Positions 36,697 to 63,535 of a stretch of 64,000 nt of DNA are shown here, one piece after another (the first letter of the stretch is position 1; each line of letters begins with the position of its first letter). The DNA is from a bacterium. GTDB taxonomy: Bacteria; Patescibacteriota; Patescibacteriia; Magasanikbacterales; GWA2-37-8. The notes beneath the pieces are model-generated. The model did no database searches. It saw only the letters and a list, made by a program, of their open reading frames with translations, and was not told the origin of the DNA. Both the position numbers and the translations under genes were made by a program. The stretch is from assembly GCA_043810165.1 (NCBI GenBank), contig JBDROJ010000027.1, forward strand, positions 36,974 through 100,973, in the 5' to 3' direction.

Positions 36697-37950
36697 ATGT
36701 TAGATATAAAATATATATTAGAGAATAAAGAATTAATCCAAGAAAACTGTAAAAATCGCGGTACTCGTGCTAATCTGGAAGAATTAATGGCTTTGGATGA
36801 AGAAAGAAAAGGGCTGTTAAAAAAAATAGAAGATCTGCGCAGTAAACGCAATCAAATTTCAAAAGAAAAACCCAGGGATGAAGATATTCTATTAATGCGA
36901 AAACTTGGACAAGAAGTTAAGCAATTAGAAAATATTTTAATCAATATTGAAGATAAATTAAAAGATGTTCTGTATCAGATACCAAACATCACGCATCCTG
37001 ATAGTCCAATTGGAGATGAGGATCAATTCAAAGTTTTATACACAAACAAAGAACCATCTAAATTTGATTTTGAACCTAAAAATCACGAGGAATTGATGCT
37101 GGATTTAGATCTAATTGATTTTGAACGCGGTGCAAAAGTTGCCGGTTCTAAATTTTATTTTTATAAGAATCAAGCAGTGCGCCTTAATCAAGCTTTAATC
37201 AATTATGGATTGGATATTACTGCCAAATACGGCTATCAGATGATGGAAACGCCTGACCTGGTTAAATCAGAAATCTTGACCGGCAGTGGTTTCAATCCAC
37301 GTGGCGAAGAAAAACAAACCTATGAAATTAAAAACACTGACTTAGACCTGGTTGGCACAGCTGAAATAACAATGCTTGGTTATCATGCAGACGAAATTTT
37401 GGACTTGAGCCAAGGACCTAAAAAATACGTGGCTTTGTCACATTGTTTTCGTGTTGAAGCCGGATCCTACGGCAGAACCAGCAAAGGACTATATCGCGTC
37501 CATCAATTCACTAAGCTGGAAATGTTCATTTTCTGCAAACCAGAAGAAAGTGAACAATATCATCAAGAATTACTCAACATAGAAAAAGAAATTGTAGACG
37601 GCTTGGAACTGCCTTATGAGGTAATTGATATAGCTACTGGCGATTTGGGAGCACCGGCTTATCGTAAATTTGATATTGAAGCTTGGATGACCATGAAAGG
37701 CGATGATAAAAAACAAGGCGGATACGGAGAAATCACCAGCACCAGCAATTGTACTGACTATCAAGCTCGCCGTTTAAATATTAGATATCAAGGCAAGCAA
37801 GAGAAAAAATTTGTACATACATTAAATGGCACAGCCGTTGTTTTAAGCCGTTTTCCAATAGCTTTGTTAGAAAATCATCAACAGGCTGATGGCAGTATAT
37901 CCATTCCTGAAGTTTTAAGAAAATATTGCGGATTTGATGAAATAAAATAA
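36697..37950 (+). CDS. serS: seryl-tRNA synthetase
   Basis: N-terminal coiled-coil arm. Class II motifs 2 and 3: FRVEAGSYGRTSKGLYRVHQF and the GTAV region. Confidence 0.9.
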   Translation: MLDIKYILENKELIQENCKNRGTRANLEELMALDEERKGLLKKIEDLRSKRNQISKEKPRDEDILLMRKLGQEVKQLENILINIEDKLKDVLYQIPNITHPDSPIGDEDQFKVLYTNKEPSKFDFEPKNHEELMLDLDLIDFERGAKVAGSKFYFYKNQAVRLNQALINYGLDITAKYGYQMMETPDLVKSEILTGSGFNPRGEEKQTYEIKNTDLDLVGTAEITMLGYHADEILDLSQGPKKYVALSHCFRVEAGSYGRTSKGLYRVHQFTKLEMFIFCKPEESEQYHQELLNIEKEIVDGLELPYEVIDIATGDLGAPAYRKFDIEAWMTMKGDDKKQGGYGEITSTSNCTDYQARRLNIRYQGKQEKKFVHTLNGTAVVLSRFPIALLENHQQADGSISIPEVLRKYCGFDEIK

Positions 37951-54714: not shown

Positions 54715-55170
54715 ATGACTGGCAAATTACTTGCGAAAAACAAAAAAGCCTATTTTGATTATGAAATTCTGGAAACTCTAGAGGCTGGTTTAAAATTGCT
54801 TGGACATGAGGTAAAGTCAGCTAAAAATAGCAGTCTTAATCTAAAAGGCAGTTATATCACTTTCCATAAAGACAAGCCTGGCGTCAGTAATATGCATATT
54901 TCCAAATACAAGCCAGCCGGAGCCTTGCCAGACCACGATCCTGAACGCTGGAGAGATGTTTTATTGAAAAAAAAACAAATAGCTTATATAAAAGAAAAAT
55001 CAACTGAAAAGGGCTTGACAATCATACCACTTAAGGTGTATACTAGCGGACGTCTAATTAAATTAGAAATAGGCATTTGCAAAGGCAAAAAAACCTATGA
55101 TAAACGTGAAATAATCAAGAAACGTGACTTGGATAGAGAAATTAAACGTGATTTAAAAGGACAATATTAA
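54715..55170 (+). CDS. smpB: SsrA-binding protein SmpB
   Basis: N-terminus IAKNKKAYFDYEILETLEAGLKLLGHEVKS. Length 151 aa. Confidence 0.9.
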   Translation: MTGKLLAKNKKAYFDYEILETLEAGLKLLGHEVKSAKNSSLNLKGSYITFHKDKPGVSNMHISKYKPAGALPDHDPERWRDVLLKKKQIAYIKEKSTEKGLTIIPLKVYTSGRLIKLEIGICKGKKTYDKREIIKKRDLDREIKRDLKGQY

Positions 55171-55354
55171 GGCTATACCGCTAAATACGCTTTCGTAGCG
55201 AAATTGATAAATTATGAGACAAAATTATTGAACAAATTTTGAGGCCTAGCTTTAGCTAAGCCAAAAAATTTTGAAATGATTTTGACCATAATTTATCAAT
55301 TGCAGTAGAAATGGTATTTGGCGACAGGGCCTATAACCACAATCCCCCAAAATA

Positions 55355-55749
55355 GGGGGTGTCGGGCTTCGACAGGAATATTTGTTATCACCGGCATATT
55401 GAGCTGGCTCCATGCTCATAAATCTCTGGGGCGCAAACACAAATGCAAATTTGTACACAAAAGCAAAAACAGCTGTTGCACAAATGTTCAATAGCTACAA
55501 CTTTGCTCCGGCAATGGCTTAATTGCCTATGCCCATCGCGCTGGCCATACCTAGTAACCAGTTGCGGTGCCACTTACCAGGCGTAGGTTAAAAATCGTTC
55601 TGATAGATTTTTAACTGAAAGCAAATATTAGATAGCTATTTAAGTTTTGGTTCTCTTCCTACTTAATTAGCAAATTAAACAAGAGAACTAAATATGTAGA
55701 AGGTATTAACAAAATTATCTGCACGCGGGTTCAACTCCCGCCACCTCCA
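55355..55749 (+). ncRNA. ssrA: tmRNA (ssrA)
   Basis: The 5' end GGGGGUGUCGGGCUUCGACAGG matches the tmRNA 5' consensus (GGGGCUGAUUCUGGAUUCGACGGG). The 3' end GCGGGUUCAACUCCCGCC-ACCUCCA-C forms the T-arm and acceptor stem. The 7-bp acceptor pairing (5' GGGGGUG with 3' CACCUCC) includes one G-U pair, as in E. coli. An internal reading frame ends ...NFAPAMA-UAA. Located immediately downstream of smpB. Confidence 0.75.
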
Positions 55750-55768
55750 CTAAAGGTATAAACATTAT

Positions 55769-56314
55769 ATGCGCATTTCACGCAAAAAGAAAAAGGCTGT
55801 AATAAAAAGAGTATATTATTACAATGAGAGAATAACTGCACCTGAAGTTATTATTTTAGATTCGGAAGGCAATAATATAGGGGTAATGAATACGGCCGAG
55901 GCAATTCGCAAAGCCAAAGAAGAAGAAATGGATTTGATTTTAATCAATCCTAAATCCGATCCTCCCGTGGCTAAAATAGCGGACTATGGACAATTCCGAT
56001 ACCAGAAAGAAAAAGAGGAAAGAAAGAAAATAGCCAGACAGCATGTAACTGATATTAAGGGTATTAGGTTGTCTTTACGCATCGGACCTCATGATTTGGA
56101 GATAAGACGCAAGAGGTCATTAAAATTTTTAAATCAAGGCGACAAAGTTAAAATTGAAATAATTTTAAGAGGCCGTGAAAACAAACAAAAAGCAATCGGC
56201 TTTGAAATTATGGACAAATTTATCAAATCGATTGATGAAGCCGAGCCAGTGCGCAGAGAACAAGATATAGAATCACAATTTAATAAAATTACCAGCATAA
56301 TCGCTAAAAAATAA
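55769..56314 (+). CDS. infC: translation initiation factor IF-3
   Basis: INERITAPEVIILDSEGNNIGVM...DLILINPKSDPPVAKIADYGQFRYQ and the C-domain IKGIRLSLRIGPHDL. Confidence 0.85.
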   Translation: MRISRKKKKAVIKRVYYYNERITAPEVIILDSEGNNIGVMNTAEAIRKAKEEEMDLILINPKSDPPVAKIADYGQFRYQKEKEERKKIARQHVTDIKGIRLSLRIGPHDLEIRRKRSLKFLNQGDKVKIEIILRGRENKQKAIGFEIMDKFIKSIDEAEPVRREQDIESQFNKITSIIAKK

Positions 56315-58588: not shown

Positions 58589-60469
58589 ATGAATAACGAA
58601 CATGAAATAGTTATATTGGATTTTGGCTCCCAATATACACATCTTATTGCCCGTCGTATTCGCGAATTGGGCTTGGTTTCGCATATTTATGATAATGATA
58701 CGCCTGTAAGCCAATTAGATAATGCAGTTGGCATAATACTATCCGGAGGACCTAAAAGCGTGCTGAACCAACAGCGACTTGATTATGATCCAAGACTTTT
58801 TGATTTAAATCTGCCAATTTTGGGAATGTGCTATGGACATCAATTAATTACTCAACATTTTGGCGGACAAGTTGTGTCCGGAAAAAGCAGAGAATACGGC
58901 CTGGCCAAAATAAAAACAAAGCCCTGCTCCCTGTTTGAACAAGTGGACTCGCAAACTCAAGTATGGATGAGCCATGGAGATCATGTAGCCGAACTGCCTC
59001 CGGGATTTGAATCTATTGCTATTACTAATAACGATGCCAACACGGCCATGGCCAATACGGATAAAAATATCTACAGCCTGCAATTTCATCCGGAAGTAAC
59101 TCATACAACTCAAGGCAAACAGATGCTGTCCAATTTCATATTTAACATCTGTAAAGCTGAAAGAAATTGGACTACAAATAAAATGTTGGAACAAATTCAA
59201 TCTGAAATTAAACAACAAGCTGGATATAAAAATATTTTTCTCTTAATTAGCGGTGGAGTTGATTCCACGGTTTGTTTTGCTTTATTAGAAAAAACCTTGG
59301 GCAAAAAACGAGTCTATGGCCTGCATATTGATCATGGTTTGATGCGTTTAAATGAATCGGCACAAGTTAATCAAGCTTTGAAAAATATCGGATTAGATGA
59401 CCTTCATATTTACAATGCTGAAAAGCAATATTTGCATGCTCTTGACGGCGTGGCCGATCCTGAACAAAAGCGAAAAATTATTGGAGATTTGTTTTTAGAC
59501 ATAGCTGGCCAGGTTATGGTTAAAAATGGCATGGATGACGGGCAATGGCTATTGGGCCAAGGCACAATTTATCCGGACACCGTTGAATCTGGCGGTACCA
59601 AACAAGCTGATTTAATCAAAACTCATCATAATCGTGTTCCTCGAGTGCAAGAAATGATTGCTCAAGGAAAAATCATTGAACCAATCAGAGAATTGTACAA
59701 AGACGAAGTGCGTCAAATCGGCCTTAAACTAGGATTGCCAAAAAATCTGCTTTATCGCCATCCTTTTCCTGGCCCTGGTTTGGGGATTAGATGTTTGTGT
59801 TCAGATGGCTTATCATTGTCAGCCCGAAGGGCGATGCAATCCCGTCTTATCCCTGTCATTGCGAGCGTAAGCGAAGCAAGCCCGTTATTACAGAACCAAC
59901 AGGATTGCTTCGCTTACGCTCGCAATGACAAAGAAAAACAGACTCTCAATAACAAATTTTACAAACTACCTATTAAATCAGTGGGTGTGCAAGGTGATGA
60001 GCGTTCTTATGCTTATCCGGCGTTAATAAATAAACTTGATTGGGAAGAACTGCGCGTTATTGCACCGCAAATTACCAATCAGCATCAAGACATTAATCGC
60101 GTTTTAGTTTTGGTTTCAGGTAATCCAGATAAAATTGCACAATCAGATTTAAAGCCTGCATATATAACAAAACAAAGGCTTGAACTTTTGCGCCAAATTG
60201 ATCACATAGTGAATAAGAATATTCTTAACAATCCCGATTGTTCTCACATATGGCAATTGCCCGTAGTAATGATTCCTTTTGGTTATAATAAGAAAGAAAC
60301 CGTCGTCTTAAGACCGGTTGAATCAGAAGAAGCCATGACTGTATCTTGGGCGCAAATTTCCGATGGTATTTTAAATGAAATTATACAGGAGATTAACCGG
60401 CTTGAAGCAGTTGATTTTATCATGTATGATATTACCAATAAACCACCAGGTACAATTGAGTGGGAATGA
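58589..60469 (+). CDS. guaA: GMP synthase (glutamine-hydrolysing) carrying an in-frame palindromic-element insertion
   Basis: GATase domain (GMCYGHQL). PP-loop SGGVDSTV. C-terminal dimerisation region (KSVGVQGDERSY). At 626 aa it is ~100 aa longer than typical, and includes the repeat-encoded segment PVIASVSEASPLLQNQQDCFAYARNDKEKQ. Confidence 0.9.
   Translation: MNNEHEIVILDFGSQYTHLIARRIRELGLVSHIYDNDTPVSQLDNAVGIILSGGPKSVLNQQRLDYDPRLFDLNLPILGMCYGHQLITQHFGGQVVSGKSREYGLAKIKTKPCSLFEQVDSQTQVWMSHGDHVAELPPGFESIAITNNDANTAMANTDKNIYSLQFHPEVTHTTQGKQMLSNFIFNICKAERNWTTNKMLEQIQSEIKQQAGYKNIFLLISGGVDSTVCFALLEKTLGKKRVYGLHIDHGLMRLNESAQVNQALKNIGLDDLHIYNAEKQYLHALDGVADPEQKRKIIGDLFLDIAGQVMVKNGMDDGQWLLGQGTIYPDTVESGGTKQADLIKTHHNRVPRVQEMIAQGKIIEPIRELYKDEVRQIGLKLGLPKNLLYRHPFPGPGLGIRCLCSDGLSLSARRAMQSRLIPVIASVSEASPLLQNQQDCFAYARNDKEKQTLNNKFYKLPIKSVGVQGDERSYAYPALINKLDWEELRVIAPQITNQHQDINRVLVLVSGNPDKIAQSDLKPAYITKQRLELLRQIDHIVNKNILNNPDCSHIWQLPVVMIPFGYNKKETVVLRPVESEEAMTVSWAQISDGILNEIIQEINRLEAVDFIMYDITNKPPGTIEWE
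59852..59931. repeat. palindromic repeat element (family 1) inserted in frame within guaA
   Basis: CTGTCATTGCGAGCGTAAGCGAAGCAA ... TTGCTTCGCTTACGCTCGCAATGACAA with a 25-nt loop. The guaA ORF reads through without a stop. Confidence 0.8.
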
Positions 60470-60545: not shown

Positions 60546-60577
60546 AAAACATCCCGATTGATTCGGGATGTTTTTTT
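60546..60577. terminator. bidirectional rho-independent terminator
   Basis: AAAACATCCCGATTgATTCGGGATGTTTTTTT. Confidence 0.65.
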
Positions 60578-60587
60578 AATTTTTCTC

Positions 60588-61235
60588 TTACTTCTTCTTT
60601 TTGGCTGAAGCTTTTTTAGGTGCGACTTTTTTAGAAGCAACTTTTTTCGCGACTTTTTTTGGCTCTGCCTTTTTTACAGTTTTTGCCTTTTTCTCTTTTA
60701 CAAGTTTTCCAATCTTTGCTTGCTTGTTAATTCCCGGCTTCTCTATGTTATTTACAGCGTCATTTGGGCTTAATATTTTTATAAGCTTATCCATTTTAGC
60801 GTTTAACATCTTAATTTGATCCATAACCTCTCCAGAATCCTTACTGCCGGTTCCGCCCTTTTCAAAACAATTATTGCAATAAATAGGCTTGCTGGTCATT
60901 GGTCTAAAAGGTATTTGGCAGTCATTTCCGCACTTAGCGCAAACTGCATTATACATTTGCTTGTCTTCAAAACGAGGCCTCTGGCGTCTTTCTTGGCTGA
61001 AACTATTGGATCTACCACTGCCACCGCCTTGTTTTTCAAAACAATCACTGCAAAATACTGGCCTGCTTCCGGTTGGCTTGAAAGGGATTTCACAACTATT
61101 GCCACAGTCGCTACAAGTAGCTCTGTGCATGGCAGGTCTGCCACCACTGTCTCTTCCACCATACCTATTTCCGCCACTAGATCCACGGCTAAAGCCATTA
61201 CTTGATCTTTTATTATCTCGATTAAAACTTCCCAT
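60588..61235 (-). CDS. putative nucleic-acid-binding protein: N-terminal RGG/Gly-Arg-rich region, two tandem CxxC...CxxC zinc ribbons, C-terminal lysine-rich histone H1-like tail
   Basis: Two repeats of C..CG..C.IPF.P....P.(F/Y)C..CFEK. N-terminus SNGFSRGSSGGNRYGGRDSGGR. C-terminus KKAKTVKKAEPKKVAKKVASKKVAPKKASAKKKK. Confidence 0.55.
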   Translation of the reverse strand: MGSFNRDNKRSSNGFSRGSSGGNRYGGRDSGGRPAMHRATCSDCGNSCEIPFKPTGSRPVFCSDCFEKQGGGSGRSNSFSQERRQRPRFEDKQMYNAVCAKCGNDCQIPFRPMTSKPIYCNNCFEKGGTGSKDSGEVMDQIKMLNAKMDKLIKILSPNDAVNNIEKPGINKQAKIGKLVKEKKAKTVKKAEPKKVAKKVASKKVAPKKASAKKKK

Positions 61236-61318
61236 ACATTAATATTTAAATTACTTAAAATGTAATTTGACTAATTTTAGCACAATTTTAAATAAAAAGC
61301 AATAGCAAAGTCGGATTA

Positions 61319-62323
61319 TTAATTTTTACCGGCTAATTGTCCGCAAGCCGCATTTATATCTATGCCAAAGCCATGGCGCTGAGTTACCTTAATTCCCTTA
61401 TTTAATAAGGTATTTTTAAAAACATTCATGGCATACGCAGATGACGGCTTGTATTTCCCAGTTGGATTATAACGAATTAGATTAACCATATAGAGCGGAT
61501 GGCTCATAAGTTCGCCCAATTCCACGGCATGGCACTCGCTATCATTTATATCATCTATCATCAAGTACTCAAACATAACTTGCCTTGATCTATTGTTTAC
61601 ATAATTCTCTATAGCGGACATCAATTTTTTTAATGGATACTGATTATTTACGGGCATAAGCTCTGAACGAAGCTTGTCGTTTGGAGCATGCAATGAAATG
61701 GCCAAATTAATCTGCATTTTCTCCTTGGCAAATTTATTTATTTCATTAATCAAACCACATGTAGAAATTGAGATACGACGCGCGCCAATATTAAAGCCGT
61801 CATTGTCATTAATTAATTTGGCTGATTCCATCACATTGTCATAATTCAAAAACGGCTCCCCCATTCCCATATATACCACATTTGTAACTCTGCTCGGGCC
61901 ATTTTTGTCATCATGCAGGTATCGTTGCCAAAATAAAACCTGCTCCGCGATTTCACTGGCTTGTAAATTTCTTTTATAGCCCATTTTGCCGGTAGCGCAA
62001 AAATCACATCCCATTGGACAGCCCACTTGAGATGAGATGCAGACAGTGGCTCTGCCATCTTCATGCTTCATTAAAACTGTTTCAACTTTTAGTCCATCTT
62101 GGAAGGTTATCAAAGCTTTTACAGTTTCACTATTTTTTGAACCGATTATCTCTGACTTTATTTCCAGCGGACATTCAAGATTCAAAACCTCGCGCAAAGA
62201 CAATGACAAAGTTGTATTATCATTCCAATCAGAAATAAGGTCCACAAAAATCGCTTTAAAAACTTGTTTAAAACGAAACTTTGGCTGATCTGCCAATATA
62301 TTTTTTATGTCTTTTAAATTCAT
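61319..62323 (-). CDS. rlmN: radical SAM 23S rRNA/tRNA adenine C2-methyltransferase RlmN/Cfr family
   Basis: CxxxCxxC motif GCPMGCDFCATG, the GMGEP SAM motif, and the C-terminal Cys (NAACGQL). Confidence 0.85.
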   Translation of the reverse strand: MNLKDIKNILADQPKFRFKQVFKAIFVDLISDWNDNTTLSLSLREVLNLECPLEIKSEIIGSKNSETVKALITFQDGLKVETVLMKHEDGRATVCISSQVGCPMGCDFCATGKMGYKRNLQASEIAEQVLFWQRYLHDDKNGPSRVTNVVYMGMGEPFLNYDNVMESAKLINDNDGFNIGARRISISTCGLINEINKFAKEKMQINLAISLHAPNDKLRSELMPVNNQYPLKKLMSAIENYVNNRSRQVMFEYLMIDDINDSECHAVELGELMSHPLYMVNLIRYNPTGKYKPSSAYAMNVFKNTLLNKGIKVTQRHGFGIDINAACGQLAGKN

Positions 62324-62442: not shown

Positions 62443-62646
62443 TTAGGCGATTCTCTTAACTTTCACTGCGCTAAGCCCTTTTGGACCTTCTTCAACTTCA
62501 AATTCTACTTTGTCGCCTTCTCGAAGATCATTGTATGTTACGTCTACAAGCTCGTTTGAGTGAAAGAAAAGATCTTTTTCTTCACCTTCGCGAGTGATGA
62601 AACCAAACCCCTTATCGGTAAGTCTGGCAATTACACCTTGTTGCAT
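62443..62646 (-). CDS. cspA: cold-shock protein (CspA family)
   Basis: MQQGVIARLTDKGFGFI RNP1 motif. 67 aa. Confidence 0.9.
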   Translation of the reverse strand: MQQGVIARLTDKGFGFITREGEEKDLFFHSNELVDVTYNDLREGDKVEFEVEEGPKGLSAVKVKRIA

Positions 62647-62851: not shown

Positions 62852-63121
62852 TTACTTATCCCAGAACTCTTCTGCCTCTTTCTCTAATTTCTCTAATCTA
62901 TCATAATAGTCTGGAAATTCATTCAAATGCGCCAGAGCTATCTTGCCGGTCATAAGCGGTTCGTCTCCGGTAACATCTGTTTTTGGATCCCTGGTGCCAT
63001 GCTCTAACTCAACATTTACCCCCATCCAAAATTGGTTGAGATCAAATTTTTCATTATTAAAATCCATTTCCAATTTCTTGGATATTTCTTCTGCTTCTTG
63101 CAAACTAAACTTTTCCTTCAT
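62852..63121 (-). CDS. small acidic hypothetical protein
   Basis: 89-aa ORF (FWMGVNVELEHG...). No family recognised. Confidence 0.4.
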   Translation of the reverse strand: MKEKFSLQEAEEISKKLEMDFNNEKFDLNQFWMGVNVELEHGTRDPKTDVTGDEPLMTGKIALAHLNEFPDYYDRLEKLEKEAEEFWDK

Positions 63122-63244
63122 ATATATTGTATTAAATTAAATATTAAAATATTGCTTAGATCCTTTAATCATTATACACCTCTTAAACAAATAAAAGAAA
63201 TAAAGAAGCCGTATAACCCAAAAATAAATCAGGTTATACGGCAA

Positions 63245-63535
63245 TGTGGGCTTTAATCTGAGTTCGCGATGCGTCGCTGGGCTACTTTTCACCATGTGAT
63301 AAATGCAACTAGGACCGAAGTCCTTGGTTGCAAGTAAAGACTCGCACGGATCTAACGCATTGGCTAGCGCAGACTCTGCCCGGCTCAGCGGACCTAAAGG
63401 CCAGTTGGCCACCACCCCACAGGTGACTTACTGAGTACTGGGCTCCACGTATGGAGCCTAGTCAGGATTGTACCCGAGCCCACGAGTACTTTTCTCTTGA
63501 CTCCAAGAGTCAAAGAGATTCCAGAGGGGTCAATA
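63245..63535 (+). other. GC-rich (~55%) non-coding segment densely packed with hairpins; candidate structured ncRNA or clustered palindromic repeats
   Basis: No ORF of 60 aa or longer on the + strand. The single 92-aa ORF on the - strand has low-complexity composition. Consecutive stems: GGACCGAAGUCC, GGCCAGUUGGCC, GGCUCCACGUAUGGAGCC, the long-range UACUGGGCUC...GAGCCCA pair, and a preceding 11-bp hairpin GCCGTATAACC/GGTTATACGGC at 63209-63243. Confidence 0.45.

Follow-up and report, generated by a model that had tools for sequence, protein, structure and literature searches.

A two-finger PF23477 protein of Patescibacteria with basic arms and a conserved helix: a possible RNA-binding chaperone or cofactor

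Introduction

The protein analyzed here is encoded on the minus strand (60588..61235) of a stretch of 64,000 nucleotides, hereinafter the window, which corresponds to positions 36,974 to 100,973 of contig JBDROJ010000027.1 (assembly GCA_043810165.1) from a patescibacterium of the order Magasanikbacterales. The open reading frame (ORF) starts with ATG, is complete and yields a product of 215 amino acids (aa) with a pI of 10.0, which contains two zinc fingers of the family PF23477 and is an exact match to the GenBank entry MFH1292137.1 from a contig of 120.6 kb (record name 'MAG: CxxC-x17-CxxC domain-containing protein [bacterium]', where MAG stands for metagenome-assembled genome). The gene is real, intact and conserved, and both the domain family and the exact protein are already present in the databases. 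There is about an even chance that the protein functions as a non-specific, dimeric RNA-binding chaperone or as a cofactor of helicases or of the ribosome, beside cold-shock proteins (Csp), DEAD-box helicases and translation factors. In that case, it would be a housekeeping, probably abundant protein of Patescibacteria, which are ultra-small, uncultured bacteria.

Among the relatives of this protein, experimental data have been reported for small proteins of the archaeon Methanosarcina mazei: two members of the family have been shown to bind zinc using inductively coupled plasma mass spectrometry, and the finger proteins rank with the small proteins that are detected with the highest confidence in this organism (PMC12704099). 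Two of these small proteins, A00184 and A01980, share with the patescibacterial protein the finger domain, including the x17 spacing and the (V/I)PFxP...P(V/I)(Y/F)C core, as well as a similar N-terminus of the M(G/A)FN(D)R type. However, the archaeal proteins consist of a single finger with a short basic end (~45-60 aa), whereas the patescibacterial protein possesses two fingers, a long Gly/Arg/Ser arm, a helix with a heptad pattern, a Lys tail of 43 residues and one more conserved cysteine. Bacterial proteins of ~90-130 aa that combine PF13451 (zf_Tbcl) with PF23477 resemble the patescibacterial protein in the finger at their C-terminus, which is often preceded by a Gly/Ser/Arg/Tyr-rich linker, but contain a different N-terminal finger (CxDCGxEFxFTxxEQxFF...RCxxCR) and only one copy of PF23477, and lack both the helix and the Lys tail; these proteins come from other phyla and also from contigs classed as viral, and some are encoded beside DEAD-box genes.

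Several better known systems resemble parts of the protein. In eukaryotes, CNBP/ZNF9, the plant cold-shock-domain/glycine-rich CCHC proteins and the FUS-type RGG-zinc finger-RGG proteins contain zinc modules located between disordered Gly/Arg segments and, like the patescibacterial protein, combine a high positive charge with a link to cold-shock domains. The folds involved (CCHC knuckle, RanBP2 finger) are unrelated to the treble-clef-like CxxC-x17-CxxC finger; the resemblance is an analogy only, and we know of no sequence similarity between these chaperones and the patescibacterial protein. The tails of histone H1, chlamydial Hc1 and actinobacterial HU (HupB), which are rich in Lys and Ala, are similar to residues 173-215 in composition and charge density, whereas neither the respective profiles nor a winged-helix or HU fold are found in the patescibacterial protein, in which the tail is joined to fingers and a coiled-coil-like helix. 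The C-terminal extensions of the DEAD-box helicases DeaD/CsdA, CshA and RhlE are likewise disordered, basic and RNA-tethering, and DEAD-box genes adjoin the finger gene in several loci; in contrast to these extensions, the finger protein is a separate polypeptide without helicase motifs, encoded downstream of its own promoter-like site. The C4 finger of DksA/TraR has the identical CxxC-x17-CxxC spacing, but the corresponding profile PF01258 is not matched (Pfam, E <= 1); DksA contains a long coiled-coil hairpin and binds in the secondary channel of RNA polymerase. In one locus (L209), a separate DksA/TraR gene, which encodes a distinct protein, is located near the finger gene.

A search of the literature by accession and topic, in the library that was searchable, retrieved no paper on the composite patescibacterial architecture, the conserved helix or the link to csp, DEAD-box or ABC-F genes; what was found concerns only zinc binding by the archaeal single-finger relatives (PMC12704099).

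Integrity and domain architecture of the protein

The protein matches the Pfam family PF23477 (zf_Tbcl_2, 'probable treble clef zinc finger') in two stretches (E 3.3e-32, 110.3 bits where 27 is the cut-off) and the NCBIfam family TIGR04272 ('CxxC-x17-CxxC domain-containing protein'; E 1.4e-32, 111.1 bits against a cut-off of 36), and these matches are far above chance. An earlier note made from the DNA sequence had delineated the 215-aa ORF at 60588-61235 and recognized an N-terminal arm, two cysteine fingers and a Lys tail, all of which are present, but found no named family to which the fingers could be assigned; the profile search it called for places both of them in PF23477/TIGR04272, in agreement with the GenBank name. 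The modules are as follows (the evidence is given in parentheses).

60588..61235, minus strand: complete gene for a 215-aa basic protein with two PF23477/TIGR04272 fingers (sequence, Pfam and NCBIfam matches, exact database match)
61131..61235, minus strand: N-terminal arm, residues 1-35 (composition, predicted local distance difference test score or pLDDT, homolog alignment)
61026..61130, minus strand: finger 1, residues 36-70, MHRATCSDCGNSCEIPFKPTGSRPVFCSDCFEKQG (PF23477 stretch 36-69)
60957..61025, minus strand: inter-finger linker, residues 71-93, Gly/Ser/Arg-rich (alignment, low pLDDT)
60852..60956, minus strand: finger 2, residues 94-128, MYNAVCAKCGNDCQIPFRPMTSKPIYCNNCFEKGG (second PF23477 stretch)
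60765..60836, minus strand: conserved amphipathic helix, residues ~134-157 (AlphaFold2 helix, alignments)
60591..60719, minus strand: Lys-rich C-terminal tail, residues 173-215, ending in AKKKK (composition, homologs, pLDDT)

It is exceedingly improbable that this gene is the C-terminal part of a helicase gene, or of another larger gene, cut off by a frameshift, or a low-complexity ORF that arose by chance. The rlmN gene immediately upstream is complete, with its own stop codon, and is followed by an 83-bp spacer that contains a promoter-like site; the MGxFNRD start is conserved in homologs of the same length; all ten cysteine codons are intact; and the family comprises 452 clusters at E <= 1e-30. 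The helicase-fragment scenario is excluded.

The predicted zinc ligands are C41, C44, C62 and C65 in finger 1 and C99, C102, C120 and C123 in finger 2, with the CxxC-x17-CxxC spacing preserved exactly in 117/117 two-finger homologs. The proline, phenylalanine and proline of the (V/I)PFxP core are invariant across the whole PF23477 family, whereas the fifth cysteine (CxxCGxxC; C48 and C106) is conserved only within the subfamily. In AlphaFold2 models, the fingers have a pLDDT of ~90 (full model; the mean for the finger-only model is 86.5); the first CxxC is located in the turn of a beta-hairpin (strands 37-41 and 47-50) and the second one at the N-terminus of a helix (63-68, or 31-37 in the finger-only model). 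Because the hairpin knuckle holds the first CxxC and the helix N-terminus the second, the fold is predicted to be treble-clef-like. From the four conserved cysteines and the confidently modeled fold, each finger would be expected to bind one zinc ion.

C-terminal to the fingers, AlphaFold2 predicts a helix at residues 134-155 (pLDDT 62-82), for which the family consensus is QIKxLNxKxDKLxxxL. Six columns of the helix alignment are 100% hydrophobic, and five of these (alignment positions 12, 15, 19, 22 and 26) are spaced 3-4-3-4; K147 and D149 are invariant and N145 nearly so, and L155 is nearly invariant among 38 aligned homologs and fully so among 27 sequences aligned over the helix. In the protein itself, the hydrophobic residues of the helix are spaced 4-3-4-3-4. 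This heptad a/d pattern suggests a short coiled coil, or a candidate element for dimerization or docking of a partner.

The remaining parts of the protein are predicted to be disordered in the case of the N-terminal arm and the Lys tail, and all scores outside the fingers and the helix fall below ~50 when the family alignment is supplied to AlphaFold2. The arm (74% G/S/R/N, net charge +5) has a pLDDT of about 42-47 over residues 1-30 (<50 at 1-3 and 10-31), and its start, MGSFNRD in this protein and MGxFNRD in the family, is strongly conserved among 38 aligned homologs. The linker varies between 25 and 48 residues in homologs, and a conserved RPRFxDKQM leads into finger 2. The tail, which includes 20 lysines in 43 residues and contains AKK/KKV repeats (net charge +18, pLDDT ~50), is retained, together with the terminal KKKK, in nearly all of the 120 best homologs. 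M1 and A39, the Cys, Pro and Phe residues of the two fingers, and K147, D149 and K212 are identical in all 38 aligned sequences.

These data modify the initial description of the protein in several respects. The fingers, described as nearly identical zinc ribbons, share 19/35 residues (54%), and in the models they do not show the arrangement of a classical ribbon, in which both CxxC are located in hairpin turns; the spacing given as P-x5-P is actually IPF-x-P-x4-P (P54 to P59). The arm was called RGG-like; it is rich in Gly, Arg and Ser, and the protein contains four RG/GR dipeptides and zero RGG tripeptides (many homologs carry several GGR/RGG repeats). The helix is a fourth conserved module, which was absent from that description. 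Finally, the likeness of the tail to histone H1 or Hc1 holds for composition but does not extend to a profile match (none at E <= 1).

The tail nevertheless bears on one of the alternatives, namely that the protein is a nucleoid protein of the histone-H1/Hc1 type, in which the tail and the arm would neutralize and bridge DNA, the fingers would add DNA contacts and the helix would dimerize. The density of lysines, the AKK/KKV repeats and the pI of 10 are in line with such a role, but Pfam at E <= 1 yields no linker-histone, Hc1 or HU profile, and Gly/Arg arms are typical of RNA binders. This explanation, to which some of the fusions and neighborhoods described below also pertain, appears unlikely.

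Searches of the Protein Data Bank (PDB) with the sequence gave zero matches, and fold searches with Foldseek gave zero significant matches; the Methanosarcina ribosome with SriA and SriB, which was on the Foldseek list, was rejected because the Sri proteins are CBS-domain factors unrelated to the PF23477 family. Likewise, there were zero matches to the phage and anti-phage defense families of PHROGs and PADLOC.

Distribution of the family and domain fusions

A profile search of all 1.84 billion cluster representatives (50% identity) yielded, in addition to the clusters at E <= 1e-30 mentioned above, 3915 finger-family clusters at E <= 1e-10 and 6505 at E <= 1e-3. With this number of clusters, the finger domain is a common one, and it is found in archaea, in many phyla of bacteria and in viral contigs. 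The 120 best homologs (164-344 aa) all possess the Gly/Arg/Ser arm, the fingers (three in 3 proteins and two in the others) and the Lys tail (120/120), and those that carry names are from Patescibacteria (Uhrbacteria, Magasanikbacteria, Komeilibacteria, Buchananbacteria and Parcubacteria).

A degenerate DNA pattern for the finger (75 nt) retrieved 72 IMG/VR contigs and at least 120 metagenome contigs, and the encoded proteins fall into four types. The first type includes stand-alone fingers of 35-60 aa, of which the named ones belong to DPANN, Asgard and methanogen archaea. In the second and commonest type (~90-130 aa), a PF13451-type finger at the N-terminus is joined by a Gly/Ser/Arg/Tyr linker to a single PF23477 finger. 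The third, patescibacterial type combines one or two fingers with the helix and the tail.

The fourth type includes fusions with other domains. The finger is fused to TrwB/TraD-like coupling ATPases (L110, L117 and L169), and in L114 it is found at the C-terminus of a superfamily 1 (SF1) helicase with a restriction-endonuclease-like domain. In L163:2223-3584, an unassigned N-terminal region (S1/Csl4-like by eye) is followed by the finger, an RNA recognition motif (RRM) and an RGG tract, and in L182:8622-9416 the finger is N-terminal and precedes PVVEPK repeats and a complete GrpE domain. With regard to a nucleoid function, the fusions to DNA translocases and to the SF1 helicase with the nuclease-like domain speak for contacts with DNA, whereas the RRM fusion points to RNA. 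The occurrence of the finger as a C-terminal domain of helicases, which had been proposed as a check, is borne out for SF1 (L114) but not for DEAD-box helicases, with 0 DEAD-box-finger fusions among 122 finger proteins sampled from metagenomes.

Some further observations concern the distribution of the finger. The 72 IMG/VR contigs (L011-L082), which are classed as viral, mostly encode the PF13451+finger protein of ~100 aa; some of the finger proteins from these contigs are of a distinct type (79-126 aa), in which a single finger is combined with a helix at the N-terminus (ISNIDLIDELHRR...), and L064 encodes a 222-aa protein with an unknown N-terminal domain, a finger and a K/R tail. Comparison of the IMG/VR finger proteins with PHROGs gave zero matches. 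With a 76-nt pattern, four finger genes with a 1-nt frameshift inside the finger were detected in GTDB nanopore MAGs with MFD names (L007-L010); these frameshifts are probably indel errors of assembly, and the labels of the genomes (Gammaproteobacteria, Eremiobacterota and Armatimonadota) indicate that the finger domain occurs in those phyla.

Gene neighborhoods

Upstream of the finger gene in the window are rlmN and csp, encoded on the same strand, and the only convergent neighbor is guaA.

61319..62323, minus strand: rlmN, radical-SAM rRNA/tRNA methyltransferase, immediately upstream (TIGR00048, 340 bits against a cut-off of 290)
62443..62646, minus strand: csp, cold-shock-domain protein, 1.2 kb upstream (Pfam CSD, E 1.4e-19)
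58589-60469, plus strand: guaA, convergent neighbor (ORF position)

The gene order csp, rlmN, finger gene, all on the minus strand, corrects the initial view that the finger gene is convergent with rlmN and cspA. Accordingly, of the proposal that the protein is an RNA- or nucleoid-associated factor, the argument from convergent genes falls, whereas nucleic acid binding, more likely of RNA, agrees with composition, fusions and neighborhoods.

In all, 18 distinct loci that encode patescibacterial-type proteins (44-66% identical) were examined. Strict synteny is absent and the finger gene usually stands alone, but the following genes recur.

csp within 2 kb, 5/18 loci: convergent in L138 (139 bp) and L203 (214 bp), upstream on the same strand in L190 (135 bp), at a distance of 1.2 kb in the window and of 2.0 kb in L004
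DEAD-box helicase, 3/18 loci: L203 (73 bp upstream, same strand), L190 and L208 (within 3.3 kb)
ABC-F ATPase, immediately adjacent: L138, L190, L207, L210
TypA/BipA, adjacent: L136
RlmN: the window (adjacent) and L206 (at 4.9 kb)

Among the five loci with csp, no fewer than 3 arrangements are represented. Of the csp copies in the 255 kb of sequence that was fetched, all (5/5) fall within the 70 kb nearest to a finger gene, for which the probability under uniform placement is 0.0016 (0.006 when the long flank of the window is omitted). As a control, 192 finger-containing loci of all types (1.35 Mb) contain four csp genes, three of them beside the patescibacterial type, and the ~1.3 Mb around finger genes of other types contain only 1. 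The finger gene is non-randomly close to genes for RNA-remodeling and ribosome-associated factors. Against a nucleoid protein, the recurrent neighbors are csp, DEAD-box, ABC-F, TypA and RlmN genes rather than genes for replication or segregation; in its favor, dnaG-rpoD, dnaX, a SWIB-domain gene or greA are located near some loci.

The juxtaposition with helicase genes raises the narrower possibility that the protein is a trans-acting 'C-terminal extension' of a minimal DEAD-box helicase, to which it would dock by the helix or the fingers and supply the basic tether to RNA that in other bacteria is part of the helicase polypeptide. The finger gene follows a 429-aa DEAD-box gene, with a helicase tail of only ~45 residues, by 73 bp on the same strand in L203/L139; in other organisms, small PF13451+PF23477 proteins directly adjoin DEAD-box genes, namely in L123 (a 401-aa DEAD-box gene and, after 187 bp, the small finger protein) and L144 (finger gene followed by DEAD-box gene). 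The helicases encoded immediately before a finger gene (401 and 429 aa) are nearly core-only, whereas the distant ones in L190 and L208 (~500 aa) carry their own Ser/Arg/Gly tails. However, a helicase is found within 3.3 kb in only 3/18 loci, no DEAD-box helicase gene was found within the 64-kb window, DEAD-box-finger fusions were lacking in the sample described above, and csp or ABC-F genes adjoin the family much more often. A dedicated helicase extension appears quite improbable.

ABC-F and TypA, in turn, are ribosome-binding factors, and together with the GrpE fusion in L182, the invariant polar residues of the helix, which suggest a specific partner, and the prominence of the M. mazei relatives among confidently detected small proteins (PMC12704099), they are compatible with another explanation, namely that the fingers bind protein. 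The protein would then be a ribosome or chaperone adaptor, or a lineage-specific ribosomal protein, with the charged arms anchoring it to rRNA. We assign to this explanation a low probability: no ribosomal-protein family, including bL31, bL32, bL33, bL36, uS14 and bS18, was matched in Pfam and NCBIfam, and 0/18 loci place the gene in a ribosomal-protein operon. The sole hybrid of the finger with uS3 is P0256 (246 aa, NCBI), in which residues 1-165 represent a two-finger member of the family and are followed, by eye, by a uS3 C-terminal domain; being a single protein on a 1016-bp contig, it is likely to be a misassembly and was rejected, although a genuine protein of this kind would connect the family with the ribosome.

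Possible mode of action and implications

A nucleic acid-binding role, with RNA as the likelier ligand, is suggested by the basic composition of the protein, the RRM, SF1 and TrwB-like fusions, and the recurrent RNA- and translation-related neighbors. As an RNA chaperone or cofactor, the protein could act as follows. Each finger would hold one zinc ion by its four CxxC cysteines and present conserved basic residues (K53/R111, R58/K116 and K68/K126), and the helix would pair two chains, giving a dimer with four fingers and four flexible cationic arms. With its arms and the basic finger residues, the dimer would hold RNA backbones through electrostatic, non-specific contacts and could bring RNA strands together or keep them unfolded. 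It may also connect partners, for example a core-only DEAD-box helicase or the ribosome, with RNA. The need for such an activity would be greatest where RNA misfolds, for example at low temperature.

Several lines of evidence weigh against this scheme. Literature searches on PF23477, TIGR04272, IPR026363 and PF13451 yielded no functional study, with only zinc binding reported, for the M. mazei members. The finger is also fused to the DNA-handling TrwB/TraD-like ATPases and to GrpE, and may be a general nucleic acid or even protein adaptor. Tails rich in Lys and Ala are likewise typical of bacterial proteins that compact DNA. In the PDB and fold searches, no RNA-binding domain of solved structure was matched, either by sequence or by fold. 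Lastly, 9/18 loci have no csp, DEAD-box, ABC-F, TypA/BipA or RlmN gene nearby, the 18 loci are phylogenetically related, and the neighborhood statistics come from small numbers.

A broader generalization, which at present seems doubtful, would be that PF23477 fingers are widespread, hitherto unrecognized prokaryotic RNA chaperones or cofactors, of which the dimeric, FUS/CNBP-like 'RGG-zinc finger-polylysine' form of Patescibacteria would be the most elaborate and would assist rRNA and mRNA folding together with Csp, DEAD-box helicases, ABC-F and BipA. Under this proposal, the protein might serve as an in-trans RNA tether for minimal helicases or nucleate RNA-protein condensates.

The neighborhood and fusion data turn a domain of unknown function into a testable hypothesis of a zinc-dependent RNA chaperone or cofactor. 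The patescibacterial gene is conserved in organisms whose genomes are very small, and in such genomes the genes that are retained are usually important. If the protein is an RNA chaperone, the RNA-binding modules of prokaryotes would include a new one, the abundant small proteins of archaea could be explained, and it would become apparent how reduced genomes manage RNA folding; if it binds DNA instead, it would represent a new type of nucleoid protein in uncultured bacteria.

Expression signals and other features of the locus

The finger gene is flanked by putative signals of transcription.

60546..60574, no strand assigned: G+C-rich hairpin between guaA and the finger gene (terminator scan, plus strand)
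61274..61302, minus strand: promoter-like site in the 83-bp spacer after rlmN (read from the sequence, putative)

The hairpin is located 14 nt past the TAA stop codon of the finger gene, and the minus-strand reading has TTTTAATT after the stem; it is likely to be a bidirectional terminator. The promoter-like site (61302-61274) consists of TTGCTT and, after 17 nt, TGTGCTAAAAT, with the -10 element TAAAAT preceded by TGTGC (extended -10). A consensus promoter scanner missed this site, in which only 3/6 bases of the -35 hexamer match, but a comparable TGnTAnnnT element is present ~40-50 nt before the ATG in most of 14 other loci. The AT-rich leader lacks a Shine-Dalgarno motif and contains TTTTAAGTAAT; several leaders of finger genes at different loci have a motif similar to TTTTAAGTAAT ~20 nt ahead of the start codon. 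The missing Shine-Dalgarno motif was dismissed as a special trait of the finger gene because this feature is window-wide: only 5/56 long ORFs of the window have a Shine-Dalgarno-like motif, and the leaders are AT-rich instead. The scarcity of this motif and the GC content of the window (36%) both accord with a patescibacterial genome. The csp gene is preceded by a perfect sigma-70 promoter (62783-62755, minus strand; TTGACA-17-TATAAT with an upstream TG), read-through from which could extend into rlmN and the finger gene.

Just upstream of csp, a DUF5661 gene (89 aa) is located at 62852-63121 on the minus strand. Elsewhere in the window, smpB (54715-55170), the gene for tmRNA (55355-55750; tag ANLYTKAKTAVAQMFNSYNFAPAMA) and infC (55769-56314) are consecutive within 54715-56314. 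A GC-rich island at 63200-63520 (48-55% GC compared to 36% for the window) contains no convincing ORF and has neither an Rfam match (gathering threshold, E <= 1) nor a similar sequence in the fetched loci. Both strands of the island fold much better than shuffled controls (z -4.7 and -3.9), and at the end of the minus strand a strong hairpin precedes a U-rich stretch, making the island a candidate for a structured non-coding RNA of ~300 nt.

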